DNA from: an uncultured Gammaproteobacteria bacterium
GTDB taxonomy: Bacteria; Patescibacteriota; Microgenomatia; 2-02-FULL-39-11
Length of the DNA: 64,000 nt
Assembly: GCA_964362665.1 (NCBI GenBank)
Contig: CAYIFB010000002.1
Location: 14,404-78,403 of the forward strand
Direction: 5' to 3'
Part shown: positions 2,128 through 30,127 of the stretch, piece by piece
Layout of the letters: each line of letters begins with the position of its first letter
Numbering within the stretch: position 1 is the stretch's first letter
Notes under the pieces: model-generated
Told to the model about the DNA's origin: nothing
The model's database searches: none
The model's input: the letters and a program-made list of their open reading frames with translations, nothing else
Position numbers and translations under genes: made by a program

Positions 2128-2186
2128 AATGTAATAGTGTCACCGCCTTTCATTAGAAATTGTTAGCGAATTTATGAGCTTACAAT

Positions 2187-2261
2187 TTCTTGTGTCCTCC
2201 TAAGATCGCTCCGTGAGCCGCGCTACGAATAGTAGGTAAGGCGAACGGTAAGATCAGGAGG
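2187..2261 (-). promoter_or_regulatory. conserved structured leader element in rplJ-rplL spacer (copy 1); possible ribosomal-protein-binding RNA motif
   Basis: An ~75 nt block matches 29853..29938 (plus strand) nearly base-for-base when both are read in the sense of the downstream gene. The central core is identical and the flanking inner helix covaries. Confidence 0.4.
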
Positions 2262-2275
2262 ATTTGTTTCCTTTC

Positions 2276-2824
2276 TTACTTTTTCTTTTCTTTAATATTA
2301 TTTAGAGCAACAACCACTCTCTGCAGATTCCAATTTAAAGCATAATGCAGGCCGTAAAGAGGTGATTTCATTCTCATAGCCAAGGTTGCTAAAAGGATTT
2401 CGCGGTTTGCTAGGACCGATAATTTTTTAAAATCTTCATTTGTAGCGATTCTTTCGTCAAAAAAACCGATTTTGATTTTGGGAAGCTGAAAATTTTTAAT
2501 AAATTTTGCTACCGCTTTGACAGCATTGACAGTGTCTCCATGAATCAGAAGTGCAGCTGTAGGATTATTGAGTTCTCCTTCCAGTTGAGGGAGAGATTCT
2601 TTCGGAAGCTGTTGGATGGCCAGTTTAAGCAAAGTATTTTTCGCGACAATATATTCAGCCTCAACTTTTTTCAAAGCTTTTCGCAGTTCTTCCAGCTGTT
2701 TGTGGGTAAGCCCTCTGTAATCAGTGAAAAAAAAGGCTTTGGCTGTCTTCAATTTTTCCTGAAGTGACGAGATAGCCTCAATTTTTCTTTGTCTGTTTGG
2801 TGATGTTTTTGCTACTTTATCCAT
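2276..2824 (-). CDS. rplJ: 50S ribosomal protein L10
   Basis: L10 signature FFFTDYRGLTHKQLEELRKALK. The start is trimmed to MDKVAK (ATG at 2824) rather than the 216-aa ORF start at 2926. Located upstream of rplL. Confidence 0.85.
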   Translation of the reverse strand: MDKVAKTSPNRQRKIEAISSLQEKLKTAKAFFFTDYRGLTHKQLEELRKALKKVEAEYIVAKNTLLKLAIQQLPKESLPQLEGELNNPTAALLIHGDTVNAVKAVAKFIKNFQLPKIKIGFFDERIATNEDFKKLSVLANREILLATLAMRMKSPLYGLHYALNWNLQRVVVALNNIKEKKK

Positions 2825-2986
2825 AAAAAATGCCTCGATTAACGAGGCGAAAGGATTATATCTAATCTTCTCCTCGGCAGGTCTTAATTTTGCGCCTGCT
2901 GTCTTAGGTAGAAGAAATATTAACACACTCTTTGCGTTGGGTCAAGGGTTTGGAGAAGGGAAGGATTAATGGTAGAATAAAATTCT

Positions 2987-3376
2987 ATGGCGCCTTTAGC
3001 AGCCGATTTACAGCAGAATATTATGGTGACGGTGTACCTTCTTTTTTCCCATAACTATATTGCCTTTGCCTATTTTACCGGTCTGATTATAAGTATTATA
3101 TTATCGATTAAATGGCCGTCACGTTTTTCCACCTATTCTTTTTTAGGTTTTGCGATTCTTCTTTTCTCCTACGAATACGACAAACATATTATTGAAGGTC
3201 TTCGCCAACAGACTTTGAGGTCTCTTATCACCCTGCAGCCTCATCTTCGCTTTCAGAGACTTATCAGCGTAACGATTACTGAGATTCTGCCGATATTATT
3301 TTATATTGCAGGCTGGGCCTTTATCTACCTTGCCATTATCCACGCCGCGAGAAAACTGGGGAAGAAGGAAAAGTAA
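2987..3376 (+). CDS. hypothetical membrane protein
   Basis: 129 aa with three or more hydrophobic segments. Confidence 0.35.
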   Translation: MAPLAADLQQNIMVTVYLLFSHNYIAFAYFTGLIISIILSIKWPSRFSTYSFLGFAILLFSYEYDKHIIEGLRQQTLRSLITLQPHLRFQRLISVTITEILPILFYIAGWAFIYLAIIHAARKLGKKEK

Positions 3377-3490
3377 TACTCCAAACGATATATTCAAAAG
3401 GATAAAATTTAAACCTTCTCATCACCAATGATGTTTTGATAAATACCCTATAGCATGTTATAATCCTCCAGATTATTTGTAATAAATCCT

Positions 3491-5146
3491 ATGCCAGGAA
3501 TAGAAGTACGATCAGGTGACATACAATTAAATATGACAGATGTGGTAAATACTCCCCGATACCGTGCGGTTGGCAATAATTTGATTTTATTACCTAAAAC
3601 ACCATCAAACCCACACTGCGATCGAGTTCTGGATAGAATTGATGCCGCAAGGTTGGAAAGACCTCCGACTCCGGAAGAGTTAGATCAGTTTGGCACGCTT
3701 ATTCAGGTTGCCCCAAATCAACCAACACCCGCATCGCCTGATGAAGATCTTAGAGTCCAATCGATTTATACCGGTTCTGGATGTGGCTTAGTTGGTTTGG
3801 GTACCTTATTTCCGGAACTTCAGGCAGGTCTAAATCATTTTCAAACACTGACAGGTCTACTTTTTCCGTCCCAAGTGGCGTGGAATCATGGGTTAGTTGC
3901 AGAGGTCAATCAGGCAAACATGCTACCTGAAGGGAATCAGGACTTAATTGAAGCATGGCTTGGGGCAATCGAACCAAAAAGAGTTTGGAGTCTAACCCAT
4001 CTTCTAAGCCCGCGCAAACAGGCAAAATCATTGGAAGCTCTAATTTCACCTGAAAGTCGCACCCACAGGCTCGGAATTATTGGCCTTGGAGATATCGGGA
4101 CTTTTGTAGCTTCGATGATAAGACGAGCAGATCGAAAAGATACCCATATTAATGATATTTTTATCGGAGGATCGAGAAATTCCGAAAAAGTTAATGCCCA
4201 ATTGTTGGAATTACAACATATTAATATTGAGGGCGTACAGCAGCCCAATATTCATGCTGTCATGCCGGGGGAAGAGGATACTTTTTTCCGTGAATGCGAT
4301 ATTATTTTGATTCTTATCGCATCTGAGATACCGGCGCCAGGTTCGAGTCAGAATATAGATGTCCGATCAGTGCAATATGCCCGAAATTTGGAAATAATAT
4401 GCGAAATACTTAGTAAAGCTAAAAAACATGAATATGATGGCCAAATTTTGATGGGATCAGATCCGGTGGAGCAATTGACGATGGCGATGTACTTGAATAT
4501 GAAAAGAAACGGTTGGGATATAAACACACACCAGTTTGCCGGTTTCGGAGGAATGATTAATAGATCCAGAGCAAAAGCTGTGGCTGACGAGATGGGTTTA
4601 AATTCCTTTCAAAGAACCGGCAGAACGTACGGACCTCACGGCAAAATGGCGCTTGCTTTTCCCACTCATAATCCTGAAGAATATAATCAACGAGTCGCAG
4701 AATTACTTTCTCTTAGAACAGCACTTGGTAACTACCGGATCAGAGAACAAGGGGAAAAACCATATATCGGTCCTTCCGTGCTCATTTCTGAAGGACTTAC
4801 TAACATGCTCCACGGTGGTTTAAACCTCAGACCGTCCAGCCGCAGGGGTACGATTTACGCCAGTCCGTTTTTACCGGGAGATGATTCAGATGAATTGGGA
4901 GCATTTTTTGGCGCAAGAGTGCAGTATATTCCTGCGCCGGGTGTCTGGACTCCAAGAGTGGATCAACCGTATTTAGAGCAGGTAATGGCTGTATTACGAA
5001 GAGCCCATCAATGGACCTCAATAACCAGTCATCACCCTGATGCGCTTAAACATGATCCTTTTACGGATGGACAAAATAGCCATCCCGCATTTCATCCTTT
5101 TATGATGGAAGAATGGATGAAATTAGTAATGCAGAAAACAGAATGA
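3491..5146 (+). CDS. lactate/malate dehydrogenase family protein with ~190-aa N-terminal extension
   Basis: C-terminal 350 aa follow the LDH/MDH pattern: IGLGDIGT Rossmann motif, ILIASEIPAPGSS...R in place of TAG..RKPG..R, DPVEQLT in place of NPVD, GFGGMINRSR in place of GSGT.LDSAR, and GPHG in place of the catalytic GEHG. This alignment is by eye. Confidence 0.45.
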   Translation: MPGIEVRSGDIQLNMTDVVNTPRYRAVGNNLILLPKTPSNPHCDRVLDRIDAARLERPPTPEELDQFGTLIQVAPNQPTPASPDEDLRVQSIYTGSGCGLVGLGTLFPELQAGLNHFQTLTGLLFPSQVAWNHGLVAEVNQANMLPEGNQDLIEAWLGAIEPKRVWSLTHLLSPRKQAKSLEALISPESRTHRLGIIGLGDIGTFVASMIRRADRKDTHINDIFIGGSRNSEKVNAQLLELQHINIEGVQQPNIHAVMPGEEDTFFRECDIILILIASEIPAPGSSQNIDVRSVQYARNLEIICEILSKAKKHEYDGQILMGSDPVEQLTMAMYLNMKRNGWDINTHQFAGFGGMINRSRAKAVADEMGLNSFQRTGRTYGPHGKMALAFPTHNPEEYNQRVAELLSLRTALGNYRIREQGEKPYIGPSVLISEGLTNMLHGGLNLRPSSRRGTIYASPFLPGDDSDELGAFFGARVQYIPAPGVWTPRVDQPYLEQVMAVLRRAHQWTSITSHHPDALKHDPFTDGQNSHPAFHPFMMEEWMKLVMQKTE

Positions 5147-5168
5147 TTCGTCACTTCAGAGGTTTAGT

Positions 5169-6143
5169 ATGATTACGGAAATTACTCCTCGCATTTTCGG
5201 AAGGACTCTAATTTCTCCTTTTGAGATTATGGGTCAGCGGGAAATTGACCAACTGGATGAACTTTTATTATCCCGTCCCCGCGGTGTTATTATGCTCGAT
5301 TTGGATGGACATTTAATAAACGAAGATCAACGCATAACGGACGGAAGAATCGGGGAATCAATTCAAAAGACTAAAGACGCCGGGTTTTTGGTGTGTCTCA
5401 ATTCAGCCCGACCATCTCAGACACTACGCGAGTGGCAGAGGGTGTTTGGAACGGATGATCCTAATTTTGCTGAATTTGGAGGATTGGTTGATTTTGCAAA
5501 TTTGGGATGGCAATTAGTTTTTCAGGAGAAAGAGTATCAATTTTTTGGCGAAATGAGAAGATCAATTCCAGTTCTTTTAAAGGGTATGCAAGATAAGGGA
5601 TTTTCAAATATCGATTACAGATATTGTGAAGACGAGGAGGCTGCCACGCAACTTCAGCGCCAAACAGATGACCATTCTTGGATTTCATCTCCATATACCC
5701 ATGGAATTTACCTTAATGGCAGGCCAAGATTAAGGTTAGGGTTGCGGGCTTTTAAGATAACTCCTGATGGTCCTTCTTTTGATGAAGGATATACCCAAGC
5801 CGTTTTGGATTTACTGCGGGCTTATGAAAAAGAAAATCCTTTTTATAAACCGTTAGTCTATAATTTTAATCCGCTGGATTATTCTGTATTTATTCACTCA
5901 GGCAAACAAAATAAAACTATTATCTGGAGAATATTATTGTCATATTTAGGAAAAAATGCCTCAACTCGAGAGTTTTATCATTTAGGTGACAGCAGGGTAG
6001 ATAGAATAGAAGTGCCACAAGTAAAATTTTTGACGGTTGGTAATGCTCAGGAAGATATTAAAGGAAAAGCGCACCGTGTTTCACCGCTAGGATTCACACA
6101 AGGTGTGGTGGATAATCTGACCTGGATTAGGGATAACCATTAA
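5169..6143 (+). CDS. HAD-superfamily hydrolase-like protein
   Basis: MLDLDGHLIN matches HAD motif I (DxDG). LVCLNSARP matches motif II. HLGDSRVD matches motif IV. Confidence 0.4.
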   Translation: MITEITPRIFGRTLISPFEIMGQREIDQLDELLLSRPRGVIMLDLDGHLINEDQRITDGRIGESIQKTKDAGFLVCLNSARPSQTLREWQRVFGTDDPNFAEFGGLVDFANLGWQLVFQEKEYQFFGEMRRSIPVLLKGMQDKGFSNIDYRYCEDEEAATQLQRQTDDHSWISSPYTHGIYLNGRPRLRLGLRAFKITPDGPSFDEGYTQAVLDLLRAYEKENPFYKPLVYNFNPLDYSVFIHSGKQNKTIIWRILLSYLGKNASTREFYHLGDSRVDRIEVPQVKFLTVGNAQEDIKGKAHRVSPLGFTQGVVDNLTWIRDNH

Positions 6144-6144
6144 A

Positions 6145-7041
6145 CTAAGACGAGGGAAGAGACATTCTTTTAATATTTCTGTATGTAAGATAATTCAATA
6201 AGGAAGATAATCCGCTTTCTCGGATAATGGAGTCAGACTTTGATGATCCGGGAATTGTTACACCGGCATCTTCCAAATAAGACTTTATGGTTTGCAGTTG
6301 ATCATGAAAGGATAAATAGACTTCAACTTCTCCCCGGTGCCTGGATAAAGCCTGATCCATTTTATGGACAAGCGAAACCGCATAAGCTGTTTTAAGCCCG
6401 TCGCTACCTGGGGTTTGCATGTCGATGACGCTCATATCGGCAAGCATGAGCAATACTCTTTCTATCGTCTTAGAATCACTGTTTAAAAGATGATGTATGC
6501 TATGGGCGACAGTATTGGCGTGTTCCGGAAAACCCCAGACTGTAAGTAATGCAATAGTTTTTAAAATATGATTTCCTTCCATCCTCCTCCAGGGAGATTG
6601 GGAGGGGTATGAATTCGTGTAAGGAGTTAAATCCACTTTATCCAATTCCCATTTTGCAACATCTTCGGAGGTGATTAAATTACCTAAATCATGGGCAAAC
6701 GCAGAAGTAACGAGCAAAGGCTCATCTACAACACTTGAACCGATCGTCGATTGAGATACTTGATTTAGCTGCCTACCAACTTCCGTAGTATAATTACATA
6801 CCAGTAGCGAGTGGCTTAAAAGCGAATGCGGGCCAGCTCTTTCTGCTTCAACCATCCGCTCTACCAGCCCTGACTCTTTTAGTTTCTGGGTTAACCGCAA
6901 TGAACTTTCAAAAGATGGGAAGGCAGGTTGGCACTCTTCATTGATATATCTTTCCAAACCTGTAACAATACCTACCCCGGTTACCTGACTAAGATGGTCA
7001 ATATTTAAGCTTCTAAGAAGTCCTAATCGTTCTACAGTCAT
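6145..7041 (-). CDS. HD-domain phosphohydrolase-like protein
   Basis: H...AFAHDLG pattern in the N-terminal half resembles the metal-binding H..HD motif. Confidence 0.4.
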   Translation of the reverse strand: MTVERLGLLRSLNIDHLSQVTGVGIVTGLERYINEECQPAFPSFESSLRLTQKLKESGLVERMVEAERAGPHSLLSHSLLVCNYTTEVGRQLNQVSQSTIGSSVVDEPLLVTSAFAHDLGNLITSEDVAKWELDKVDLTPYTNSYPSQSPWRRMEGNHILKTIALLTVWGFPEHANTVAHSIHHLLNSDSKTIERVLLMLADMSVIDMQTPGSDGLKTAYAVSLVHKMDQALSRHRGEVEVYLSFHDQLQTIKSYLEDAGVTIPGSSKSDSIIRESGLSSLLNYLTYRNIKRMSLPSS

Positions 7042-7090
7042 ATTAATTAATATGGAAAGTTCATTATAATAGCATAAAGAAGCCGCAAAA

Positions 7091-7118
7091 TAAAAAAAGT
7101 TGAAGTTGTAATCAACTA
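7091..7118 (-). terminator. rho-independent terminator of rplA (overlaps stop codon)
   Basis: Minus-strand RNA forms AGUUGA-UUACAACU-UCAACU followed by seven U. Confidence 0.45.
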
Positions 7119-7984
7119 AAAAGAACTTTTATCCCCGGACTCATGGTAGATTTGAGGGTAATTTTCTGAATTTTATCCGGTATGATTGATTTTATTAAAG
7201 CTTTGAAATTGTCTTCCAGCTGTTTATCTTTGAAGGATAGTTTACCGATGACTGCATGGATGAGAGGGAATTCAGACTCGGTTTTCCAGTTGACTGATCC
7301 TCCCTGAAATTTTTTGGCTACTTCCTCAGGTTTATCGGAGATGGTACCGTTTTTGGGATTTGGCATAAGGCCTTTGGGGCCTAAAAATTTGGCAACCCTG
7401 GCGAGCTTTCCCATCACAGACGGGTGGGCGATAAGCGTATCGAAATAAATTTTGCCGTTGGTAATATCTTCGACGATTTTATCAATAGTTTTGGTATCGG
7501 CTATTGCTACTTTTACTTCTTTGCCTGTGCCATGAGGAAGCTGGACGTTGCCCCGCAGTCCTTTTTCCACCGTATTGATGTGAAGTTCGACTGTTTCGTC
7601 AAATTTCGCCAATGCTACTTCGCGCAGAAGTATTAACCCGTCGCCAAAAGGGTAAAGTTTGTTATGATCAACCTTCATCAAAGCCTGTTTGTACACTTTA
7701 CTGCGATTGCGAGCTCTGGATTTTTTGGATTTTTCTTCCTCTTTCCCGGGATGAATTCCTTCAGATTGGTCTTTTTCTACAGTCTCGGCGAGTTTGGCAA
7801 GCTTTGAGATTTCCTCTTCAGATTCTGCTCCCACAGACTTTACTCTTTGTCCGCCTTTCATGCCCGGGACATGGACTTTTTGGGAAAGTTCGCGCTTTTT
7901 CTTTTCCTCACGCTTGACGCGCTGCTTATCCTTCAAAGCTGCTTCTTCATCACTTCCTAGTGCTGCAATTTTTATTTTTCCCAT
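7112..7984 (-). CDS. rplA: 50S ribosomal protein L1 with ~75-aa Lys/Glu-rich N-terminal extension
   Basis: C-terminal ~215 aa are canonical L1 (KVDHNKLYP..., PHGTGKEVKVAIA, LGPKGLMPNPK). The start codon sits 2 nt after the rplK stop. Confidence 0.85.
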   Translation of the reverse strand: MGKIKIAALGSDEEAALKDKQRVKREEKKKRELSQKVHVPGMKGGQRVKSVGAESEEEISKLAKLAETVEKDQSEGIHPGKEEEKSKKSRARNRSKVYKQALMKVDHNKLYPFGDGLILLREVALAKFDETVELHINTVEKGLRGNVQLPHGTGKEVKVAIADTKTIDKIVEDITNGKIYFDTLIAHPSVMGKLARVAKFLGPKGLMPNPKNGTISDKPEEVAKKFQGGSVNWKTESEFPLIHAVIGKLSFKDKQLEDNFKALIKSIIPDKIQKITLKSTMSPGIKVLFS

Positions 7985-7985
7985 A

Positions 7986-8411
7986 TTATTCTACCTTTAC
8001 TCCCATCGATCTGGCTGTGCCCGCAACGATTTTCATGGCTGCCTCGACATTATCGCAATTGAGGTCTTCCATCTTATCCTTGGCAATAGTCTCGACGTCT
8101 GATTTTTTTAAAGTTCCGGCTGACTCTTTACCGGTTTTACCAGATCCTTTTTCCAATCCCAATTTTTTTTTGATAAGTTCCGCGACAGGCGGAAGCTTGG
8201 TAATGAAAGAGAAAGTCCTGTCTACATAAACTGTGATGACAGCCGGAATCACCTGTCCTTTTTTATCGGCTGTTTTTTCATTGTAGGCACGGACAAAATC
8301 CATGATAGGCAGGCCATGCTGGCCAAGTGCCGGACCAACCGGAGGAGCGGGAGTGGCTTCGCCTGCTTTTAAATTTAGCTTAATGACTGTTTTGACTTTT
8401 TTGGCTACCAT
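7986..8411 (-). CDS. rplK: 50S ribosomal protein L11
   Basis: [33 protein letters not shown] is the L11 signature. Start trimmed to the internal ATG at 8411. Confidence 0.9.
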
Positions 8412-8702
8412 TTTTGAGTATAAAGTATTTAGTATTAAGTATTTTGGGAAGGAGAATGGAGAATTGAAGAAATTAAAATAAATCACCAATTCGGCATTCC
8501 GCCTCCCTTATTCCGATCCAATCGAAACAGGTAAAAGTAGTTTAACATTTCAAAAAGCACTTGTAAAGGTATAATTCAAGGCTAATTAATTATAGGCTTA
8601 GGATAACTTATCCACATAGAAACCTATAGTAGTAGTCATAATAATAATTATAGGCTTATGAATCAGAGAAATTATACAGGAGGTGAATTTAATCTATTGA
8701 AA

Positions 8703-9299
8703 TTACCCTCTTCTGAATCCTTTGGTAGGGGAAGGATTAAGGCGGGCTTGAGTATTTGTCTGCATAGTTCGATCGTTTCGATAGCCATGCGGATTTGGTG
8801 CTGGTGGGGTTGGGAATTGAGATCTAATTTTATCTCTAGCTTTAGCGACGCTTTCTCTATCCAATTCAGCAACAGTACCGGCAAACCATCTGGGATACCA
8901 GCCTTGAGAAGCTCCTTGTTCTCCTGCATACAAGCCAGCAACTGATACTCCGCTTGGATGCGTAGCGTCATCGCTTGGTCCATCCAATTCGCCGGTCAAA
9001 GGGCTTACAGCATGCGAATTCATTTGTTTAATGCAATTTGCATCAAGCGCGGCCCGGCGGTCATCTGCTGTTTTACCATCGGGGAGTCTGAATCCGCGCG
9101 CAGCAATCATTTGTTCTGCCTGATCAGTACCATCTCCACAACCCCAAATAATGGCTTGTGTGGCAATAAAAGTTGTAGGATGCATAGTAGGAATAATGTC
9201 AGCTCGAGCCTCAGGTCCACTAAGACTACAAGCGAGATTTGCTCCTTCAAGAAATAAAATTGCGACACCTAATCTGACAGCTGCTGCTCTTTTATTCAT
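8703..9299 (-). CDS. hypothetical secreted/lipoprotein
   Basis: Signal peptide with an LAC lipobox-like motif. No domain I recognise. GC content higher than neighbouring genes. Confidence 0.35.
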   Translation of the reverse strand: MNKRAAAVRLGVAILFLEGANLACSLSGPEARADIIPTMHPTTFIATQAIIWGCGDGTDQAEQMIAARGFRLPDGKTADDRRAALDANCIKQMNSHAVSPLTGELDGPSDDATHPSGVSVAGLYAGEQGASQGWYPRWFAGTVAELDRESVAKARDKIRSQFPTPPAPNPHGYRNDRTMQTNTQARLNPSPTKGFRRG

Positions 9300-9380
9300 T
9301 ATTATAATATACTATAGGTTATAGGAATTGTCAAGTATGAAGCTGAGATCGAGAATTATTGACTTATGGAATGAGGTTAA

Positions 9381-9893: not shown

Positions 9894-9895
9894 AT

Positions 9896-10498: not shown

Positions 10499-10501
10499 TT
10501 T

Positions 10502-10723
10502 TTATCTTTTAAATATTAAACTTGTTAGTTTGGTCAGTAATATATCCATTCCTCCGATATAAAGCCCGATGACGGTAGAAATAACTACTACTATAATAGT
10601 CAGTTTGATAACTTCCTCACGCGAGGGCCAATTTACCTTCAAAAGCTCGCTCTTTACCTCTTTTAAAAATATAACCGGACTTCCTTTGAAGTCAGGCTTC
10701 ATCGGTTTGGGTAATTCGATCAT
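10502..10723 (-). CDS. secE: preprotein translocase subunit SecE
   Basis: 73 aa with a single C-terminal TM helix. Position immediately 5' of nusG. Confidence 0.75.
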   Translation of the reverse strand: MIELPKPMKPDFKGSPVIFLKEVKSELLKVNWPSREEVIKLTIIVVVISTVIGLYIGGMDILLTKLTSLIFKR

Positions 10724-10755
10724 TTGGTGATAGGGTTTAGTTTATCATAGGCGAA

Positions 10756-10784: not shown

Positions 10785-10821
10785 TAAAAAATTCAAATAC
10801 TAAATTCCAAAATCCAAATTT

Positions 10822-14233: not shown

Positions 14234-14249
14234 AGGATTTTGGAGGAAA

Positions 14250-21518: not shown

Positions 21519-21522
21519 TTAA

Positions 21523-23484
21523 CTAGCGAACTGTAATGTCATTGCACGACTTGCCAACTATTGTTCCACCCCAATCCGTGAGGACGAAACCTTTCCGTTC
21601 ATGACGGATAATATTTTTCAGAGGTTCTACTGTTAACGGACCATCCAGCCCCTCAAAAATTACGCGGGTTCTTATTACCGTATCGGGATTTACAGATAAG
21701 GACAATTTTTCTTTTTGATTAATTAAATCTTCCGGAAGGAGAGTGACAAAATAATACGGTTTTTCCTGGAGTCTAGGCTGCCAATAGGCAAGAAAATCGG
21801 AAATTTCTTTATCATTAAAACCTATTGAATTGAGAAGTATCTTAAGTTGTTTAGGTAATTCATCTTTTGCAAAAACAAACCCTTCTTTGGGAATAGTGAC
21901 GCCTGTCACATCTGCTTCATAGTAAAGGTAGGGATAAGAGTTAAATAATTGTTTAATCGTTCCGTCGGGGTAGGCTTTGACATTCCACCCACTATTCAAA
22001 TTATAGGAGGGTTTGCTCGAAGTTAATTTGCCCTCTATATTAAGTTTGACGTTAATATCTGTCGGCTTTTCAGGATAAAGATAAATTGCCGGTTTGCAAA
22101 GAGGTGTGGCCCAGGTCCAGAGATTTTCCGAGGCAAATTCCATATTTTTCAATTGCAGCGCCGGAGTCCGGGTTTGGTCGGTGGCTATGGTTTGGTTGGT
22201 GATGGTGTAGTAATAGATTACAGGGTCAGTGCCGGATGCGTCCCTGAAATAAAAAGTTTGTGGAGTATCATAGCTCGAAAAAACTTCATAGGTGACAAAA
22301 ACATTGGTGTCTTTTTGGAAATAAACCGATCCGATTGGCAGGTAACAGGTGACGGCTGATGCCTGCGCTTTGACAGATGACCAACCGGAAAGCGCGGCGG
22401 CTTTTATTCCACCCGGCGGGCAAAGATTGAGATTGGTTTGAGTCTTATTAAACTGCAGGAGATTCGTAATGAACGGGTTAATAGCCAGAGTGGAATTGAT
22501 AAAATACTGGTAACTATTCAATTCATCATCATTGCGGGGTGTAATCTTATTCACTTGAGTCACAAAAAAATCTTTGGCTACAAATGGCTTATTAAGGAAA
22601 GTCGGCGGGAAATTCAATCCCGGAACATCCACGATCGGAGTAAATGTATTTTGTTCCTGACAGTTAAGTATTGCCTGTTGATAAAAATCATAAGTATTCC
22701 AGTCGGGGTCGGAGGTGGGAACGGGAGTCTGTATTTTCTGGTAAAGGTCTTCTGCCATGTAGACATCGGTAAAGTGCGAACAGGCTTTTTCATTCATTGA
22801 TCCGGCATCCCACAAGACCAGACAGTCCTGAACATTAGACGGATCAAAGGCGTCTCTGGCTTTGACCACGTACAAAAACTCACGAAGATTGACATTACTG
22901 CGGTCTCCGGGTCCGCAGTTAGGAGTTTCCGGATTATAGTTACATCCTACATTATGAGTGAAAGGATTCCAATATATTTCCATTTTTTGGCCGTCCTGAT
23001 CTGTGGTTTCCGCAACTTTGCGAAGATCTGCATAACCATTGACATCACAAGTGCCACGCGCGGTATGAGCCCCTTCAATACTTGTCACGTAGCATTTGTC
23101 ACCAGCTATGTTGTAAGGCCCGGCCAGTTCATCTGTCTTACAGCTGCTGATTCTGACATTTTCACGAACTAAAATGTAATTGCGTGTTTCAAGCTGAGTG
23201 CCACTGGTATCTTTCAGAAGCATCTCGCGGCATGAGGAATTGCTATTGAAAAATGGTTTTTCATTGCCGAATTCGCCAGGATTCAACGTAACCCGGTTGT
23301 CTGCCAGATTGACAAAATTATCAGGCCAGGTAAGTGTAAAGCGGATATCGGGACGGGGATTATAGCAAAGGCCGGTGGCGTAGTTGACAGTAGGAGTATT
23401 GTTGGCCGGAGCATAGCTATTCATACCGCTTCCGGCTCCAAAACCAATCAAAGCACTGAACAATGCTGCAATTACCTGCCACAT
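21523..23484 (-). CDS. large secreted hypothetical protein
   Basis: 653 aa with a signal peptide. No recognised domain. Confidence 0.35.
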   Translation of the reverse strand: MWQVIAALFSALIGFGAGSGMNSYAPANNTPTVNYATGLCYNPRPDIRFTLTWPDNFVNLADNRVTLNPGEFGNEKPFFNSNSSCREMLLKDTSGTQLETRNYILVRENVRISSCKTDELAGPYNIAGDKCYVTSIEGAHTARGTCDVNGYADLRKVAETTDQDGQKMEIYWNPFTHNVGCNYNPETPNCGPGDRSNVNLREFLYVVKARDAFDPSNVQDCLVLWDAGSMNEKACSHFTDVYMAEDLYQKIQTPVPTSDPDWNTYDFYQQAILNCQEQNTFTPIVDVPGLNFPPTFLNKPFVAKDFFVTQVNKITPRNDDELNSYQYFINSTLAINPFITNLLQFNKTQTNLNLCPPGGIKAAALSGWSSVKAQASAVTCYLPIGSVYFQKDTNVFVTYEVFSSYDTPQTFYFRDASGTDPVIYYYTITNQTIATDQTRTPALQLKNMEFASENLWTWATPLCKPAIYLYPEKPTDINVKLNIEGKLTSSKPSYNLNSGWNVKAYPDGTIKQLFNSYPYLYYEADVTGVTIPKEGFVFAKDELPKQLKILLNSIGFNDKEISDFLAYWQPRLQEKPYYFVTLLPEDLINQKEKLSLSVNPDTVIRTRVIFEGLDGPLTVEPLKNIIRHERKGFVLTDWGGTIVGKSCNDITVR

Positions 23485-23506
23485 ATATTTTCAGTATACA
23501 ACATTA

Positions 23507-24127
23507 TTATAATGATTTTTCAAGTCTTGTTTTACAAAGTTCAAAAACCAGAGGGAAATCCTTATAACCTGCTTCACTATTCATATGTCCGGCAGACAGG
23601 ACCTGAATAGGTGAGCTGTCGAGTTTTTTCGCAAAATCCAGCGGGTACTTTTTGTCTACATAAGGATCGTTATCTGAATAAAGCGCATAGGATATTGGTA
23701 TTAGCCTTTTTAAGCGGGTAAAGTCAAAGTCCGTCCGGTAAAAAGTTTTATTCACCAGATGGACTTGCCAATACTTATCGTCAGGAAGACTGAGGAATGG
23801 GGAGACAAAGATGGCGCTGTCGAGTGGAATATCAAATTTTTCCAAAGCGTGCAAAATAAAAAGAGGGCCGAGCGAATGGCCGATAAAGCAGATTTTGTCA
23901 TTTTGATTAAGTTCGGTTAGAATTTTTTCAAAAGTCTTCAGCCAATGGTCAAGAGTCTGATTGTTGGAAGGAATGTTGGGGCCTTGGCTGGTAATAGTAT
24001 CCCAATCATCGACGGGAAACTGGGGGGTGAAGACTTTTTGCCCTAAAGATGATAGCTTTTCCCCAAGCTCTGGAAACCAATTTTCTTCAGGGTTCCCAAA
24101 GGCGCCGTGAATAATGACGAATTGCAT
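23507..24127 (-). CDS. alpha/beta-hydrolase-fold serine hydrolase (RBBP9/YdeN-like)
   Basis: GHSLG nucleophile elbow. ~200 aa single-domain esterase pattern. Confidence 0.5.
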   Translation of the reverse strand: MQFVIIHGAFGNPEENWFPELGEKLSSLGQKVFTPQFPVDDWDTITSQGPNIPSNNQTLDHWLKTFEKILTELNQNDKICFIGHSLGPLFILHALEKFDIPLDSAIFVSPFLSLPDDKYWQVHLVNKTFYRTDFDFTRLKRLIPISYALYSDNDPYVDKKYPLDFAKKLDSSPIQVLSAGHMNSEAGYKDFPLVFELCKTRLEKSL

Positions 24128-24190
24128 ATTGAAATTGATTATACCAAAAAATGCTTCTTAAAACCGGGGACGGTTCATTGATATAACCTG

Positions 24191-24222
24191 TTGACAAATT
24201 GTACAAAAAATTGTACACTTAG
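24191..24222 (+). promoter_or_regulatory. promoter/operator of TA pair 1 (TTGACA + two TTGTACA palindromes)
   Basis: TTGACAaattgtacaaaaaattgtacactt directly upstream of the antitoxin ATG at 24226. The repeated palindromic TGTACA is a typical autorepression site. Confidence 0.4.
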
Positions 24223-24225
24223 AAC

Positions 24226-24495
24226 ATGATTAATACTGTTCCTATTTCAGAGGCAAGAAGTATTCTTCCCAAACTCATAGAAGATGCAGACACCCTGTCG
24301 CAAAAAACCCTGATAACAGTGGGAGGAAAGGTAAAGGCGGCAATTGTAAATGCCAGAGATCTTGAACTTTTAGAGGAAACTCTGGAGATATTAAATGATC
24401 CTAAAGCGATGGAGGCCATAAAAAAGGGCAAAAAGGATATTAAAAAAGGAAGCCTTATAGATTGGGAAGAACTTCAAGACGAACTCAATCTCTAA
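24226..24495 (+). CDS. Phd/YefM-family antitoxin
   Basis: 89 aa. N-terminal INTVPISEARSILPKLIED is characteristic of Phd/YefM. Its stop abuts the toxin start. Confidence 0.75.
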   Translation: MINTVPISEARSILPKLIEDADTLSQKTLITVGGKVKAAIVNARDLELLEETLEILNDPKAMEAIKKGKKDIKKGSLIDWEELQDELNL

Positions 24496-24747
24496 ATGTA
24501 CCAAGTAAAATTCACCCAAACTGCTGTAACTGACCTCAGAAAACTGGATAGAAGATATCAATTATCAGTAAAAAAAGCAATTGACAGATTATCACAGAAT
24601 CCCAAAGTCGGAATGCCCCTGAAAGGAAAATTAAAGGGTTTATGGAAGCTTAGATTTTCCAGATACAGAATCATTTATCAAATAATAGAACAAAAATTGA
24701 TCATCGTGATTTTTGAAGTCAAACACCGAAAAAATGTATATCAATAA
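24496..24747 (+). CDS. RelE/ParE-family toxin
   Basis: 83 aa. YQVKFTQTAVTDLRKLD...RIIYQI is a RelE/ParE-like core. The ATG overlaps the antitoxin stop. Confidence 0.75.
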   Translation: MYQVKFTQTAVTDLRKLDRRYQLSVKKAIDRLSQNPKVGMPLKGKLKGLWKLRFSRYRIIYQIIEQKLIIVIFEVKHRKNVYQ

Positions 24748-24950
24748 AGAATTGTCAGCCTCTAACGTATATATCCCAAGCGTTTAACCCGAATTATATC
24801 GAAAGAAAATCGAAGGAGAGAGGGGAATCAGAACGTATTACTTATTAAAAGTGATATAATTTTTACTTAAGGTGGAGGTGAATAAAAGTAAGGTAATTTT
24901 AAGTTGTACAACTATTGACAACTTCTCAGCTATTAGTTAAACTTTATCAT

Positions 24951-25259
24951 ATGACTATTCTTAATTCCGCTGATTTGAGGAATAATCTTTCTGAAATATT
25001 AGAGCTTGTGGCGTCCAAGAAGAAACCGGTATATATTGGCCGGTTTGGACAACCGAAGGCGGTGCTTATGGATTTAGTGACATATAATTGGCAGAAACAG
25101 GTATTTCAATATCTGCAAAGACTTAATACACTCACCCCGTCTGAAATCGAGACACTCAATATTTTACTTGATGAGAAAACCCGTAATTCTCTTTTACTTG
25201 GCCTGGGTGAGATCAAGAGCGGGGAAGTGGTGAGTCTCTCTGAATTCCTGAAAGAGTAA
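24951..25259 (+). CDS. Phd/YefM-like antitoxin (second pair)
   Basis: MTILNSADLRNNLSEILELVASKKKPVYIGRFGQPKAVLMD. Start trimmed to the internal ATG after a TTGACA-17-TAAACT promoter-like sequence. Confidence 0.55.
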   Translation: MTILNSADLRNNLSEILELVASKKKPVYIGRFGQPKAVLMDLVTYNWQKQVFQYLQRLNTLTPSEIETLNILLDEKTRNSLLLGLGEIKSGEVVSLSEFLKE

Positions 25260-25307
25260 ATGCCATGTAAACCCTTCTTACTGAAGGGTTTATACTGATT
25301 CCAAATT

Positions 25308-25613
25308 ATGGTAAAAGAAGTATATCAAGTCTATCTTTCCAAATCCGCTGCAAAAACCGGTAAAAAACAAGGAAAAGCATTTGACATAAAAATAGGCACA
25401 ATTCTTAAACAACTTTCAAAAACCCCCATACCCGGACAGGCAGAAAGATTATCAGGAGAATTTAATTTTCTGTATTCGTACCATTTTACAAACAATGGCA
25501 CTGCATTTCGGCTCTGTTATCAGGTGAGTGAAGAAGCAAAAACGATTACTGTCGTTTTGATTGGGCCTCGAGAGAACTTCTATAAAATCCTCAAACAGAA
25601 GTTGTCTTTTTAA
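25308..25613 (+). CDS. RelE/ParE-superfamily toxin (second pair)
   Basis: 101 aa. The size, basic character and position immediately after a Phd-like gene fit a toxin. Confidence 0.5.
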   Translation: MVKEVYQVYLSKSAAKTGKKQGKAFDIKIGTILKQLSKTPIPGQAERLSGEFNFLYSYHFTNNGTAFRLCYQVSEEAKTITVVLIGPRENFYKILKQKLSF

Positions 25614-25689
25614 CTTATAATTCCTGATGTTTGTTTTGAGTGTTTGTTTTGAGTGTAATCGAAGGGGAGGACATTAAGAACGTCTTAAT

Positions 25690-25940
25690 TAATTGACAAT
25701 TTATAATGAAATCGCTACTATTCCGGAATGTTGGAAGCTGTAAATCTAATTTCACTGGATTTGGATGGAGTGGTTACCCTAATGTCTCTTTTTTGCTGCA
25801 GAGCCTGGTCTATCAAAAAAACCTGATTGCTTCGCAGAAGCGGCATCGTGTTCTGTGAAAAAAATCCATATTCAGACACTTCATGGCTTGGAGTAAACTC
25901 TCCGCCGATAAATACACCGATATAACATATATCCAGCCAG
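25690..25940 (+). pseudogene. chimeric duplicated fragment: 5' end of gene 29158 fused to 3' end of NUDIX gene 26777..27241
   Basis: 25695-25790 is near-identical to 29121-29215, covering the promoter and first ~20 codons. 25790-25940 is near-identical to 26785-26945. The fused reading frame stops after 32 codons. Confidence 0.65.
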
Positions 25941-26024
25941 GAGTCGGCATTTTAGATATAGACCTATAGTGTACAAATCTTCAATTTTAAGATACAATAA
26001 GGTGATTAGCTTGGGAGTAAACTT

Positions 26025-26696
26025 ATGTTTGAACGTTCTTTTGGATCGAATGATGGTTTTTCTAGGTTAAATAAATGGGGAAGGAAGACTCTGGTTGTTG
26101 GTTTAATATATTCTCTCTCACCAGTAGCTCCACTTCCCGTAGCAGAGGTTGTTGATTTAGGTGATGTTCAAATTCCTTTGAGGTATATAGCCGATTGTTC
26201 ACTAAGTCCTCCTCAAGGAGTAGTAGTAAGCTGTTCTGGGTTTCCAACAACTGATGAAAATAAATGGTGGCCAGTACAAGGCCAACCAGTTTTCATGGCC
26301 CATAATACAACTTATGCGAAACCGGGTGATAACCCGCCGAGAGGCAGATTAAACCCGGGTGCTGAGATGATGAATCATACAGGACAGTGTGTGATTTTTG
26401 GGAATCTTGGGGATTTCAAAATTGGGGAGTTTGTAGAAAAATCTAGAGCAACAGCTTGGCTAACAGATGATTACCCCAGAATAATAACTAGCGCAGGAAT
26501 AGCAGTAAAAATTCCACCCGGTGAGCCGGGTAAGGATGCGGTTACGGTCTACGAAGCCCCGCTTACTCCTTGTGAAGAATTGGATACATTAACCACGGGA
26601 GGGGATGTAATGCTCAATGTGGTCAAGACTGGTGATAATTTATCAAAAAATCGCGGGGAGGTATGGGGGGGCGCTCAAACAGTTAACAGACGCTAA
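26025..26696 (+). CDS. hypothetical secreted protein
   Basis: 223 aa with an N-terminal hydrophobic segment. No recognised domain. Confidence 0.3.
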   Translation: MFERSFGSNDGFSRLNKWGRKTLVVGLIYSLSPVAPLPVAEVVDLGDVQIPLRYIADCSLSPPQGVVVSCSGFPTTDENKWWPVQGQPVFMAHNTTYAKPGDNPPRGRLNPGAEMMNHTGQCVIFGNLGDFKIGEFVEKSRATAWLTDDYPRIITSAGIAVKIPPGEPGKDAVTVYEAPLTPCEELDTLTTGGDVMLNVVKTGDNLSKNRGEVWGGAQTVNRR

Positions 26697-26776
26697 CAAT
26701 ATAAACATTAATGTTAACGGCAGGGCAATAATTTGGCCTGGTGAGGATTTGATAATTCCGACTCCAACGCCATAAT

Positions 26777-27241
26777 CTATGATATTCGTTTTTGCTGCAG
26801 AGCCTGGTCTATCAAAAAAACCTGATTGCTTCGAAGAAGCGGCATTGCATCCTCTGAAAAAAAGCCAAACTCAGATACTTCATGGTTTGGAGTAAACTCT
26901 CCGCCGATAAATACTCCGATATAGCACATGTCGAGTCGGGAGCCGATGCGGTCAGTGCGGGTTTTGAGTGATTCATCGACACTGACCACCAGTCCTGATT
27001 CTTCTTTTATTTCCCGCTCAAGCGCCTCAGCAGGATGCTCGCCGGATTTCAAATATCCGCCCGGCAGACTCCAGGAGTGCTGTCTGTAAGTATGTTTAAA
27101 AAGCAAGACTTCGTTTTTCTCGTTAAAAATAATTCCTGTAACCCCGATCAAAAATTGAGTTTGAAAAAAACGCATGAAAAAGAGCTGTAAGCCTTTGGGA
27201 AGGTTCAATAGTTTCCAGACTTTGGCAAAAAATGATTTCAC
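26777..27241 (-). CDS. NUDIX hydrolase
   Basis: Nudix box GGYLKSGEHPAEALEREIKEESGL fits Gx5Ex7REUxEExGU. Confidence 0.8.
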   Translation of the reverse strand: MKSFFAKVWKLLNLPKGLQLFFMRFFQTQFLIGVTGIIFNEKNEVLLFKHTYRQHSWSLPGGYLKSGEHPAEALEREIKEESGLVVSVDESLKTRTDRIGSRLDMCYIGVFIGGEFTPNHEVSEFGFFSEDAMPLLRSNQVFLIDQALQQKRIS

Positions 27242-27585
27242 AAAGCGTTTTTATCAAGAGGCTCAATAACTGTGGAGTTATTTTTAAGTCTCTCGTTTTC
27301 TATTTCCAGCTGATGGATCCGCTTGGTCAAACCGACGATGTCGCTTTTACCCTTTTTGATTTTATTATCTTTCCCGTGCATGGTAAAGGCGGTAAAAATT
27401 GAATTGAAAAGGAAGATGAGATACGCCAAACCCAGTCCCGTCAAAAGAGAACCAACGATTACATAAAAGAGGGGAATATCAGATAACACGTATGATCCAA
27501 GGTGCAGTGTGACCAATGTCAAATTGTTTTGTGCCAGATACACCATGACTCCGCCGACAACTAAAAATAAGATAAGTATAAGCAT
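27238..27585 (-). CDS. LapA-like (DUF1049) small inner-membrane protein
   Basis: Two TM helices followed by a coiled tail (IHQLEIENERLKN). Confidence 0.4.
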   Translation of the reverse strand: MLILILFLVVGGVMVYLAQNNLTLVTLHLGSYVLSDIPLFYVIVGSLLTGLGLAYLIFLFNSIFTAFTMHGKDNKIKKGKSDIVGLTKRIHQLEIENERLKNNSTVIEPLDKNAL

Positions 27586-27651
27586 TGCTAAATAGTATAC
27601 AGACTTAATTGATATTTGACAAGTACTACAAATTATTGTACCTTATGAAGT

Positions 27652-27822
27652 ATGTCAACAATTAAAAAACAACGTATAACCCTCTTTCTTAACCCGTCTA
27701 TTGCTAAGCAGGCTAAAGCTCAAGCTGTGGTGGAGGAACTAAGCTTAACCGCTCTAGTAGAAAAAGCATTGATCAACTATTTACCCAAAGAAACAGTTAT
27801 TAAAAAAACTGTACTTTATTAG
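27652..27822 (+). CDS. small ribbon-helix-helix (CopG-like) protein, 56 aa (below ORF-track cutoff)
   Basis: KQRITLFLNPSIAKQAKAQAVVEELSLTALVEKALINYL follows a beta-strand-helix-helix RHH pattern. TTGACA lies 30 nt upstream. Confidence 0.3.
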   Translation: MSTIKKQRITLFLNPSIAKQAKAQAVVEELSLTALVEKALINYLPKETVIKKTVLY

Positions 27823-28730
27823 TCGATTTCTCTGCGGTTAACCGGTTTCGTACTATTAGAGGTTGGAACGACTCCACCCATCCAGAGAAGGCCCGGTTGA
27901 TTTGCCCAATCAGGAGCCCAGGCAGGTGCATCCTGCGGCCTGACTCGCTCAAAGTAAGAGCCCAAAGTCTCAGACGTAGCTGCGTCTCCTAGTTGTTTTG
28001 GACCCCTAGAATCAACGATTAATGGCTTTTTATCCGGGCTGAGACTGCCGATAATTACAAAATGAGCAACTGTCCCTTTCGTAAGACCGTACTTAAGGCC
28101 GCGGACGATTCCGAATCCGCCTTCATCAAAGACTTTCATTTTTGCGGACTCCAAGAGTGGGTTCCATTGAGATGGGGTGACAACATGGGTATTATTCAGG
28201 CCCCAGTCAGGTGTCAGAGGAACCGCCGAGAACATACCGGTTTTTTGGCCAAAGAACTCGATTGCCCACTTCATATGATTATCCTGCATGGTGGTGTTGT
28301 TCGGTTGAATAAGGTGATTGCCTTGATGTGTTACATCCATAAGTTCATTGATGACATCGGCAATGGAAATATCCGGTACATCACCGGTTTTGAAATAAGC
28401 AAAGGTTTTTAAGACAGTGGCAATAACCGCCTCACTGCATGAGTTTGCTTTGTAACTAGCGCTTTTAAGATGTGGTAAATATTGGGGTTTAAGTCTTTTA
28501 TATTGGTTCTCATCAAACTGGGCCGTGATAATTTTATTTCCGCTTGGTCCCCGAGGTTTTGTAAAAAAATCCGGATTTGCCAGGGAAATTTGCCGTTCTT
28601 CATTGTCAGGAACTTTCCAACCTTTTATAGGTTCCATAGCTGCTATTCTGTCGGCTATGCTAGGTTCAGGTAACAACCGTAACCATGGAGCAAAAACTGC
28701 AGCGCCAAATGCTGTTGCGGCATCTTTCAA
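27819..28730 (-). CDS. hypothetical secreted protein (possible papain-fold Cys/His hydrolase)
   Basis: Signal peptide. NSCSEAV...HFVIIG spacing is suggestive only. Confidence 0.3.
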   Translation of the reverse strand: MKDAATAFGAAVFAPWLRLLPEPSIADRIAAMEPIKGWKVPDNEERQISLANPDFFTKPRGPSGNKIITAQFDENQYKRLKPQYLPHLKSASYKANSCSEAVIATVLKTFAYFKTGDVPDISIADVINELMDVTHQGNHLIQPNNTTMQDNHMKWAIEFFGQKTGMFSAVPLTPDWGLNNTHVVTPSQWNPLLESAKMKVFDEGGFGIVRGLKYGLTKGTVAHFVIIGSLSPDKKPLIVDSRGPKQLGDAATSETLGSYFERVRPQDAPAWAPDWANQPGLLWMGGVVPTSNSTKPVNRREID

Positions 28731-29157
28731 AAATTTTCTTCGAGTATAAGGTTGTCCCTCGTTTGTCAGATAGGATGATTATATCATACTATAGGTTAAT
28801 GGGTATTCTGATAAACGGGAGTGACGATGGCAGACCAAAGACCGGGAATTTGAGGCATCCTTAATTGTGTTATTTTATTTGATTAATCAAAAATCGACAC
28901 AAAGCCTTAGTGGATTGCTGCGGCGATGATAATGGATAGGCCTATGGAAATTCCGGCAATCAGGATGGCAAGGGCTTTTTGGGGATGGGCGAGAAATAAG
29001 GAAGATAATATTTAAAAACTTACAAAAATAAATAGACTATGGATTTTGCGCATTTATCATATATTAGCAATTTCGGGAAACTTATTCCATTTCGGGAATA
29101 TTGAAAGGTATTACTTTATTAATTGACAATTTATAATGATGTCGCTACAATTCCGGA

Positions 29158-29820
29158 GTGTTGGAAGTTATCAATCTGGTTTCACTGGATTTGGATGGAG
29201 TGGTCACCGCTCGCGGTTTAACTCGTCAATATAACGCTGAAAGAGATTTAAGAAATTTTGGTGCTGTCATCTTTGAAGCACCTCCTTCTGTTCCGGACCA
29301 CCCGCAAACCATTTATCCCGGAGGTTTAAAAGCAGGCGAAATTTTCTCCTTTCTAGGTCATAAGCCAAGAAGAATTACTACGGAAACGAGTGCAGTTATC
29401 GGGGAGGCTCATGCTCGGGGAGTTATATTTAATGTAAATTCTGGAAGAAAAGCAACTCCACCATGGGCTGATATGACAAATAAACTACTCGAAAGGGGCG
29501 GTATTAAACGCTTTATTAAAACCGTTTATCTTCGTCCTCCGGGCTGGGAAACGGGGGTAAGCAAAATAGCAGGAATAGAAGCTATGAGAAAGCCATATAT
29601 AGATGAAGGAAGGCCAGTAAGGCTTTTTGTCTTTGAAGATAATTTTCGAGAAGGAGCGCAGATCGCCCAGTTTTTCCCCAACGCAAAGGTGGTAATCGTG
29701 AGAGATAACAGTACGGAAAAGTTGCGAACTGCTTTTGGTAGGGATTTAGAAAATATTGTATATGCGGATAGTTTTCATGAAGGAATGCGGGAGCATGTGC
29801 TTAAAGATCTATTGAGTTAA
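29158..29820 (+). CDS. HAD-like hypothetical protein (GTG start)
   Basis: LDLDGVV matches HAD motif I. A 5' fragment of this gene is duplicated at 25.7 kb. Confidence 0.35.
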   Translation: MLEVINLVSLDLDGVVTARGLTRQYNAERDLRNFGAVIFEAPPSVPDHPQTIYPGGLKAGEIFSFLGHKPRRITTETSAVIGEAHARGVIFNVNSGRKATPPWADMTNKLLERGGIKRFIKTVYLRPPGWETGVSKIAGIEAMRKPYIDEGRPVRLFVFEDNFREGAQIAQFFPNAKVVIVRDNSTEKLRTAFGRDLENIVYADSFHEGMREHVLKDLLS

Positions 29821-29852
29821 TCACTAAACATGAAGCTATAAAAATCTTCAGC

Positions 29853-29938
29853 CCTCCTTATCTTAGCATTCGCCTTACCCTACTATTCGTAGCGCGGCTC
29901 ATGCTGCGATTATCGGCGGACACAAGAATCCGTAAATA
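29853..29938 (+). promoter_or_regulatory. second copy of the rplJ-rplL spacer structured element, upstream of radical SAM gene
   Basis: Central core is near-identical to the sense strand of 2187..2261, with a compensatory inner-stem change. Confidence 0.4.
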
Positions 29939-30127
29939 CTCACAGGTTCGTTAACGGATTCTAGTGCAGGGCCAGGTGGGAGTAAAATCTCTGAAAAGGG
30001 TTTTACCTGCCTAAAAAACTTTTTCAGCCCCAAATTAAGAAAGTTCGAACCGCAAATTGATTTTAGTATAAAGTAGGATATAATTTCCGAATCTTATTTA
30101 TTATTTCTCTTAAATTAAATTTTAAAT

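Follow-up and report, generated by a model that had tools for sequence, protein, structure and literature searches.

A dispersed structured element with an invariant apex and covarying stems in Microgenomates-type bacteria

Two copies of the element on a groundwater contig

The stretch of contig CAYIFB010000002.1 analyzed here (64 kb in full, called the window, to which all positions refer) comes from a metagenome of Hainich groundwater (well H51) and carries two copies of an intergenic structured element. Copy 1 lies on the minus strand between rplJ and rplL, the genes for ribosomal proteins L10 and L7/L12, and copy 2 lies on the plus strand upstream of a gene for a B12-radical-SAM protein (rSAM). 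A copy measures about 115 nt and comprises two hairpins: D1, which is irregular, 68-69 nt long and invariant in the 32 nt of its apex, and P5, which follows it. The presence of both copies and their common core, reported by a first-pass annotation, was confirmed by shuffling and by a covariance model. The core, TTCGCCTTACC(C)TACTATTCGTAGCGCGGCTCA, is 32-33 nt long and is located at 2214-2245 (-) in copy 1 and at 29869-29901 (+) in copy 2; it occurs once per strand in the window, where 100 shuffles give an expectation of 0, and it is followed on its 3' side by GGACACAAGAA in both cases. A covariance model derived from other genomes scores copy 1 at 99.3 bits (E = 6e-28) and copy 2 at 80.9 bits (E = 3e-22). 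These are the only matches in the window, the third-best site in the 64 kb scanned reaching just 13 bits. The two copies can be aligned over about 115 nt with 81% identity, and their homology reaches about 45 nt beyond the limits first described, across P5.

In copy 1, D1 (68 nt) occupies 2195-2262 (-) and P5, with the sequence CACAAGAAAUUGU-AAGCUCAUAAAUUCGCUA-ACAAUUUCUAAUG, occupies 2151-2194 (-). The predicted fold has a minimum free energy of -39.1 kcal/mol (z = -3.6). D1 consists in this fold of the outer helix P1, helix P1b (GAUC/GAUC), a 3x3 loop, helix P2, two pyrimidine-pyrimidine mismatches (UC/UC) and helix P3 (GCC/GGC), and its apex continues with a 4x3 loop and helix P4 (CUAC/GUAG), closed by UAUUC. 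In copy 2, D1 (69 nt) spans 29852-29920 (+) and P5 spans 29921-29966 (+). The outer CCUCCU...AGGAGG pairing ascribed to both copies is perfect in copy 1 (UCCUCCU/AGGAGGA) and weakened in copy 2 (CCCUCCU/CGGCGGA) by U-C and C-A mismatches. The compensatory change claimed for the inner helix was borne out, as P2 reads CCGU/ACGG in copy 1 and GCAU/AUGC in copy 2, a difference of two compensatory pairs. Three more are found in the arms of P5 (GAAAUUGU..ACAAUUUC versus GAAUCCGU..ACGGAUUC), which makes five in all. P5 had been overlooked, and so had the boundary of the unit, which falls at the Shine-Dalgarno sequence of rplL for copy 1 and at what is left of a tRNA-Trp gene for copy 2.

Copy 1 starts 13 nt after the rplJ stop codon, and its P5 reaches the Shine-Dalgarno region of rplL (AAAGGCGGUGA, 2140-2150 (-)), which follows directly, is unpaired in the predicted fold and precedes the rplL start codon (2127-2125 (-)). 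The rplJ-rplL spacer of the window holds no promoter-like or terminator-like site, so that copy 1 is transcribed with the operon. The element had been tied to rplJ-rplL spacers, an assignment that comparison with seven other rplJ-rplL loci does not support, since the spacer lacks the element in all of them. In L171 (individual loci are referred to by L numbers), whose L7/L12 is 80% identical to that of the window, the spacer is 35 nt long and free of D1. There and in L115 a D1 lies upstream of rplJ in divergent orientation, while it stands antisense 10 nt after the rplL stop codon in L061, L129 and L136, and sense downstream of rplL in L118. The element thus shows no conserved linkage to the operon of a regulating protein. 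The hexamer GAAAGG is present on both flanks of copy 1, directly 3' of the rplJ stop codon (2270-2275 (-)) and at 2146-2151, and only once in the element-free spacer of L171; the pair is a possible 6-bp target-site duplication. Inspection by eye revealed no target-site duplication at the other copies.

Copy 2 was compared with the orthologous locus L019, where its tail-to-tail partner, a tRNA-Trp gene, is intact. The alignment runs unbroken through D1, P5 and the last 13 nt of the tRNA-Trp 3' end, present here in reverse complement (CAGGGCCAGGTGG, 29967-29979 (+)), and then ends. The unit itself ends 161 nt before the rSAM start codon, and a promoter-like site (30057-30084) lies between them. 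Control of the rSAM gene by copy 2, as initially proposed, is not supported in view of this gap, the tRNA fragment, the synteny breakpoint and the intervening promoter-like site. Judging from this comparison, copy 2 is probably an orphan formerly arranged tail-to-tail with tRNA-Trp and would have no regulatory link to the rSAM gene; inserted or rearranged DNA appears to have parted it from its tRNA partner, and its place upstream of the rSAM gene would therefore be accidental.

Extent of the family and conservation of its structure

A degenerate pattern of the core, scanned against GTDB species genomes, retrieved 67 loci, and a looser pattern applied to metagenomes retrieved at least 120. With a covariance model seeded with 68 sequences, at least 216 matches were obtained: the 2 of the window, 77 in the 67 GTDB loci and at least 137 in the metagenome loci. 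Some loci (L042, L064, L137, L150) contain three or four copies within 8-13 kb. The informative titles among the 67 GTDB loci are those of Gottesmanbacteria, Levybacteria/Levyibacteriota, Woesebacteria, Microgenomates or Patescibacteria, and the 32-nt core is identical across metagenome-assembled genomes (MAGs) labelled as Gottesman-, Levy- and Woesebacteria. No copy was found in the viral contigs scanned. Neither copy of the window matches any family of Rfam 15, self-cleaving ribozymes included, even at E <= 10 (chance matches only, E > 3), and the sole family matches in the whole window, at the gathering thresholds and at E <= 10, are a tRNA-Trp and an L10 leader. The literature searched on RNA motifs of Microgenomates, Gottesmanbacteria or Levybacteria, and a paper on 224 RNA motifs, do not mention the element. 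The family is confined to Microgenomates-type bacteria of the Candidate Phyla Radiation (CPR), is widespread in one class-level lineage and has so far not been catalogued. Many element-bearing third-party annotation records (L007, L008, L011 and others) are titled 'uncultured Gammaproteobacteria', and one (L017) is titled 'Nanoarchaeota archaeon'. These titles are probably wrong, because the element is otherwise found in records with Microgenomates-type titles.

The addition of homologues gave very strong support to the covariation. In the seed alignment 91.4% of the cells at paired positions are paired, as compared with 78.6% after shuffling and 32-46% after sliding the partners, and cells with double changes number 223 versus 78 in shuffles. 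In a model-based alignment of 112 matches, largely independent of the seed, 93.3% of the cells are paired, double changes affect 19 of the 22 pairs, and double-change cells number 431 versus 124 in shuffles; over both alignments, the paired share in shuffles is 74-79%. P2, with three to four pair types, is 99% paired. The apex has the invariant order UUCG-P3-UUAC-P4-UAUUC loop-CGC-P3'-CUCA. Divergent copies reveal covariation even within this 'invariant' core, since P3 swaps GCC/GGC for GGC/GCC and P4 adopts the forms CUAC/GUAG, GUAC/GUAC, GAAC/GUUC, GCAC/GUGC and AUAC/GUAU; some of them carry Watson-Crick pairs in place of the UC/UC mismatches, and UUCG...CUCA and the UAUUC loop are kept. A hairpin directly 3' of D1 is nearly universal, and about 40 of 69 copies have the canonical P5, a covarying stem with two conserved A-A mismatches. 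The family has a defined fold, an invariant apex and freely covarying stems. By eye, D1 does not fit a kink-turn (K-turn), a T-loop or an anticodon loop. A promoter within D1 was also considered and rejected, as the TACTAT of the loop lacks a conserved -35 box (by eye), and so was an intrinsic terminator, the flanks having no U tract and the scans reporting no terminator at either copy of the window.

Compensation is also observed in place, at orthologous copies. L012 and L040, which share the flanking open reading frame (ORF), tRNA-Asp and tRNA-Gly, differ by CCACC/GGUGG versus CCUCC/GGAGG and by AU/AU versus GC/GC, and copy 2 differs from its ortholog in L019 by compensatory changes in P1b, P2, P4 and P5. 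Copies of one genome are not near-identical: copy 1 and copy 2 of the window, and likewise the three copies of L064, are set apart by compensatory differences. The initial proposal of selection on structure without recent duplication is supported.

Genomic contexts of the D1-P5 unit

The element is a repeat dispersed over dozens of unrelated contexts, an outcome that the first-pass annotation had named as one that would refute its reading. The 3' end of the unit is joined precisely to functional boundaries of the neighboring genes, a coupling that its 5' end does not show. The distance from the end of P5 to a Shine-Dalgarno sequence is 1-3 nt; where a transfer-messenger RNA (tmRNA) or tRNA gene follows instead, P5 reaches it or stops a few nucleotides away. 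Strong Shine-Dalgarno sequences preceded in this way belong to genes for ribosomal proteins S1, S21 (three loci), L33 and L7/L12 (the window), for HU (two loci), MreB, DUF5679 (three loci), DUF378 and DUF4870, and for small membrane or secreted proteins. The TopA gene is preceded by D1 without the canonical P5. Four distinct loci (L015 = L105, L062, L095 and L149) have D1-P5 immediately ahead of tmRNA, an arrangement that is kept while the core itself diverges, and in L011, L063, L073 and L144 it directly precedes same-strand tRNA genes. In 11 cases it is placed tail-to-tail with tRNA genes, with three in a row in L064, and in L076 it is tail-to-tail with a sequence read by eye as a 5S gene. 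D1 also lies just before 23S in L056; six loci have it upstream of 16S at a distance of 30-260 nt, at times in tandem. In the case of type IV secretion system (T4SS) pilin genes, D1 with a short hairpin is located upstream of TTGACA-type promoters. Where a copy stands alone, its limit is set by the end of a convergent gene or by a GC hairpin.

D1 without P5 is moreover embedded in a probable RNase P RNA, between its helices P2 and P4 (L010 and L070, the latter the same as L150). There it takes the position of the RNase P helix P3, after a 14-bp P1 strand and a P2 strand; AGGAAAGUCC comes immediately after it, and P4 is paired and contains a covarying A-U. These assignments were read by eye, with the pairing of the two ends in P1 and the P4 motifs GGAAAGUCC and ACAGAA.CUGGCUUA as criteria, and the Rfam model for class A RNase P RNA gives a weak match of 25 bits (E = 7e-6) against a gathering threshold of 100. 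This RNase P RNA (2519-3074 in L070; also in L010 and L150) is very divergent and has several large insertions besides the D1 in its P3. A second candidate, L107, suggested by GGGAAAGTCC after D1, was rejected for lack of a match.

Several features were noticed beside these copies. In the tmRNA leader of L062 (2378-2549) a degenerate D1 with UUCG as its P4 loop is located 14 nt before the canonical copy, and L042 has three D1 copies within 400 nt (278-673) beside a 16S gene, one of them divergently oriented. TATAAT is found 7 nt before the 5' end of tRNA-Ser in L064 (5858-5885), and TGATATAAT 7 nt before P1 of the RNase P RNA in L070 (2503-2519). Stable RNA genes in element-bearing genomes seem to start at their mature 5' ends or no more than a few nucleotides away. 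A conserved AAGUGGUAGGAAU motif just 5' of 16S genes (L121, L137, L022, L042, L048) may be an unusual promoter or processing signal.

Possible modes of action

Microgenomates have no cultured members, and their genomes are very small with little spare DNA. Taken together with the number of copies, the 32 invariant bases and the covariation, this makes an idle element very unlikely. The reading preferred here, with a rough probability of 0.4, is that D1-P5 is an autonomous structured module under host-level selection at each locus and acts as RNA on the core-bearing strand. In such a scheme the folded D1 would dock a putative trans-acting factor that is itself conserved, most probably an RNA-binding protein specific to the lineage, and D1 and P5 together would fold into a compact block by which the yield of the neighboring RNA is raised or fixed, through stability or end processing. 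The module might also be transcribed by itself as a small transcript or form part of another RNA, as it could in the RNase P P3 of one lineage. As to copy 1, it would be a folded block within the 5' untranslated region (UTR) of rplL and may help to make L7/L12 in excess of L10. A bolder version is put forward more tentatively, namely that D1 with P5 is a lineage-wide RNA tag, read by a putative dedicated factor, on transcripts of the translation apparatus and other abundant transcripts. The set so tagged would possibly comprise rRNA, tRNA and tmRNA precursors, RNase P RNA, and the mRNAs for ribosomal proteins and HU.

A number of observations weigh against the action of the module as RNA. G-U makes up 1.3% of the paired cells of D1, versus 6.7% in tRNAs of the same loci, and there is no RNA-type strand asymmetry, because G-U pairs are no commoner than A-C mismatches (29 versus 50); P5 contains 2 G-U among 306 Watson-Crick pairs. 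Orientation is evenly divided, with D1 sense in 37 and antisense in 36 tandem gene contexts and 19 versus 19 when both neighbors lie within 200 nt, as counted with crude gene calls (ORFs of at least 80 amino acids and tRNAs). A position-by-position analysis of composition detected no promoter at a fixed distance 5' of D1. In addition, at some 16S and pilin-gene loci the element is separated from the gene by promoter-like sequence. Orthologous sites are occupied patchily, with D1 in the rplJ-rplL spacer of one of the eight loci compared, that of the window, and the RNase P case is limited to a single lineage.

Several of these points are better explained by the main rival, an extragenic palindrome acting at the DNA level, of the repetitive extragenic palindrome (REP)/BIME, REPIN or Correia kind, which would form a hairpin or cruciform on either strand and whose transcription would be incidental. 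This is a possible account, if a doubtful one. Its DNA-acting partner would be either the transposase that spread it or, no more surely, a topoisomerase or nucleoid protein working near heavily transcribed genes. The copies are strictly intergenic, dispersed, present in both orientations and imperfectly palindromic, as REP/BIME, REPIN or miniature inverted-repeat transposable elements are, and tandem copies occur. Random orientation to genes and pairing by Watson-Crick pairs only, with G-U about as frequent as A-C, follow more naturally from such an element than from an RNA module. Patchy occupancy, the GAAAGG doubled around copy 1 and single in L171, insertion into the permissive P3 loop of one lineage's RNase P RNA, and copies beside tRNA gene ends in either orientation and near highly transcribed genes fit it as well. 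Selection on mobility alone, however, does not predict compensation in place at orthologous copies, and the copies within a genome are not near-identical. The invariant part is an asymmetric apex rather than the terminal arms, and it is identical between Gottesman-, Levy- and Woesebacteria-labelled MAGs. Nor does a DNA palindrome account well for a 3' end held at fixed spacing to Shine-Dalgarno sequences and to tmRNA and tRNA 5' ends while the 5' end is uncoupled, or for a D1-P5-tmRNA arrangement that outlasts divergence of the core. By eye, no other copy has a target-site duplication, and the viral contigs scanned contain no copy. No Y1 transposase was found either: tblastn searches of 1.29 Mb around the copies with IS608 TnpA and E. 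coli RayT gave no match below E = 0.04, which is weak evidence.

The remaining explanations fare less well. The copies could be independent genes for trans-acting small RNAs of about 115-130 nt, each with its own promoter and with the apex as working surface, some perhaps co-transcribed with their neighbors and freed, for instance, by RNase P cleavage at a tRNA or tmRNA 5' end; both forms of this proposal are regarded as unlikely. An orientation independent of neighbors, like that of tRNA genes, the stand-alone copies with their convergent gene ends or GC hairpins, -10-like boxes 2-12 nt upstream of several copies (L064 among them) and units abutting the tRNA and tmRNA 5' ends where RNase P would release them all agree with it. 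It is at odds with the absence of a promoter at a fixed upstream distance, with the many copies in operons and 5' UTRs where a terminator could not fit ahead of the Shine-Dalgarno sequence, and with a D1 devoid of P5 inside the probable RNase P RNA; no complementarity to targets was found. A riboswitch-like sensor through which a global signal would tune translation-apparatus genes is very unlikely. D1 does have a conserved, asymmetric, aptamer-like core and covarying stems, copies in 5' UTRs lie close to Shine-Dalgarno sequences, tandem copies exist (L062, L042) and the downstream genes are rich in ribosome-related ones, but an expression platform is wanting: the Shine-Dalgarno sequence is free in the predicted folds, no terminator/anti-terminator alternative is seen and P1 does not covary with the Shine-Dalgarno sequence. 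About half of the copies, besides, are antisense or convergent to their neighbors, and one is inside the probable RNase P RNA. The least credible is the idea from which the analysis started, a mimic of rRNA that binds L10(L12)4 or L11 and exerts feedback on rplL and the rSAM gene, which is contradicted and was rejected. It is favored by the position of copy 1 before rplL. Nevertheless, the true L10 leader of the operon lies elsewhere, upstream of rplJ at 2817-2926 (-), outside the element, where Rfam L10_leader (RF00557, gathering threshold 44 bits) matches at 49.6 bits together with a promoter-like site (2945-2917) and a terminator-like hairpin (2848-2832). The L10 and L1/L11 leader models have no match in either copy at E <= 10, and neither copy has the position of such a leader 5' of rplJ, copy 1 being 3' of that gene and copy 2 27 kb away. 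The position in the spacer is not conserved in relatives, more than 200 family members stand beside unrelated genes, and a synteny breakpoint and a promoter-like site separate copy 2 from the rSAM gene. The claimed weak likeness of AGCG..GCUCA to the 23S GTPase centre, which would also favor it, depends on GCUCAC, the last C of which belongs to the variable helix P2. The core shares no 8-mer with the first 1.4 kb of a Microgenomates 23S gene, a fragment that excludes the GTPase centre.

Comparison with known systems places the element between several classes. Like REP/BIME and REPIN of proteobacteria and Correia elements of Neisseria, it is a dispersed extragenic imperfect palindrome found in either orientation, such elements being often co-transcribed into mRNAs or 3' UTRs, lying near highly expressed genes and keeping their hairpins by compensatory changes. 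It differs from REP elements in that its apex is invariant and its arms are variable, the reverse of what they show, and from the whole group in a core that is the same across order-level lineages, compensation in place, a second conserved hairpin, a 3' end at fixed spacing to Shine-Dalgarno sequences and tmRNA or tRNA 5' ends, a low copy number (2 in 64 kb) and the lack of a RAYT-type or other transposase found nearby. The reuse of one compact motif in rRNA precursors, RNase P RNA, tRNA-linked transcripts and mRNAs recalls the K-turn with L7Ae and the archaeal bulge-helix-bulge, whereas D1, at 68 nt, is far larger, lacks a G-A tandem or bulge-helix-bulge geometry, is random in orientation to genes and has a partner that is only putative. 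With L10_leader and other ribosomal-protein leaders it has in common the presence of copy 1 in the L10-L7/L12 operon and of copies before the S1, S21 and L33 genes; it differs in having no model match, in the real leader lying elsewhere and in being bound to no single protein's operon. Finally, the 5' stabilizer stem-loops of the ompA, aprE and ermC leaders resemble it as folded blocks that sit a short way upstream of the Shine-Dalgarno sequence, at or close to the 5' end of mRNAs that are abundant. They are specific to single genes and show no sequence conservation, in contrast to D1, which has 32 invariant nucleotides and occurs outside mRNAs too. If D1-P5 is indeed an RNA docking module, it points to a new factor that handles the most abundant transcripts of the cell, and the tag version, if true, would be a novel cis element operating at regulon scale, or a novel ribonucleoprotein docking system, in uncultured bacteria. 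Should it instead be a REP-like DNA element, no family of that kind would have been described from CPR bacteria before, and its degree of conservation would be unusual. In both cases, a covariance model is ready for the annotation of Microgenomates genomes, and single copies should not be read as gene-specific leaders.

The DNA downstream of copy 2 has features of its own. The region 29980-39548, which includes the B12-rSAM gene, has the look of a mobile island that was integrated or rearranged. Beside a second, intact tRNA-Trp (39478-39548 (-)) it encodes a large serine recombinase (37722-39503; Pfam Resolvase, Recombinase and Zn_ribbon_recom). Three further genes would, judging by sequence likeness, encode a LexA-like repressor (34417-35019), a Vsr-like endonuclease (35045-35452) and a cytosine methyltransferase (35449-36555). 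Two pairs of inverted repeats are 100% identical, one of 108 nt (32091-32198 and 37732-37839) and one of 103 nt (37835-37937 and 39378-39480), the latter abutting the tRNA-Trp 3' end; they may mark sites of inversion by a recombinase or have arisen in the assembly. On the other side of copy 2, direct repeats with 88% identity (25684-25946, 26786-26945 and 29114-29208) include a common promoter-like TTGACA...TATAAT leader and the N-termini of paralogous ORFs. The 220-amino-acid ORF just upstream of copy 2 (29158-29820; no Pfam match) is one of these repeat-linked paralogs.

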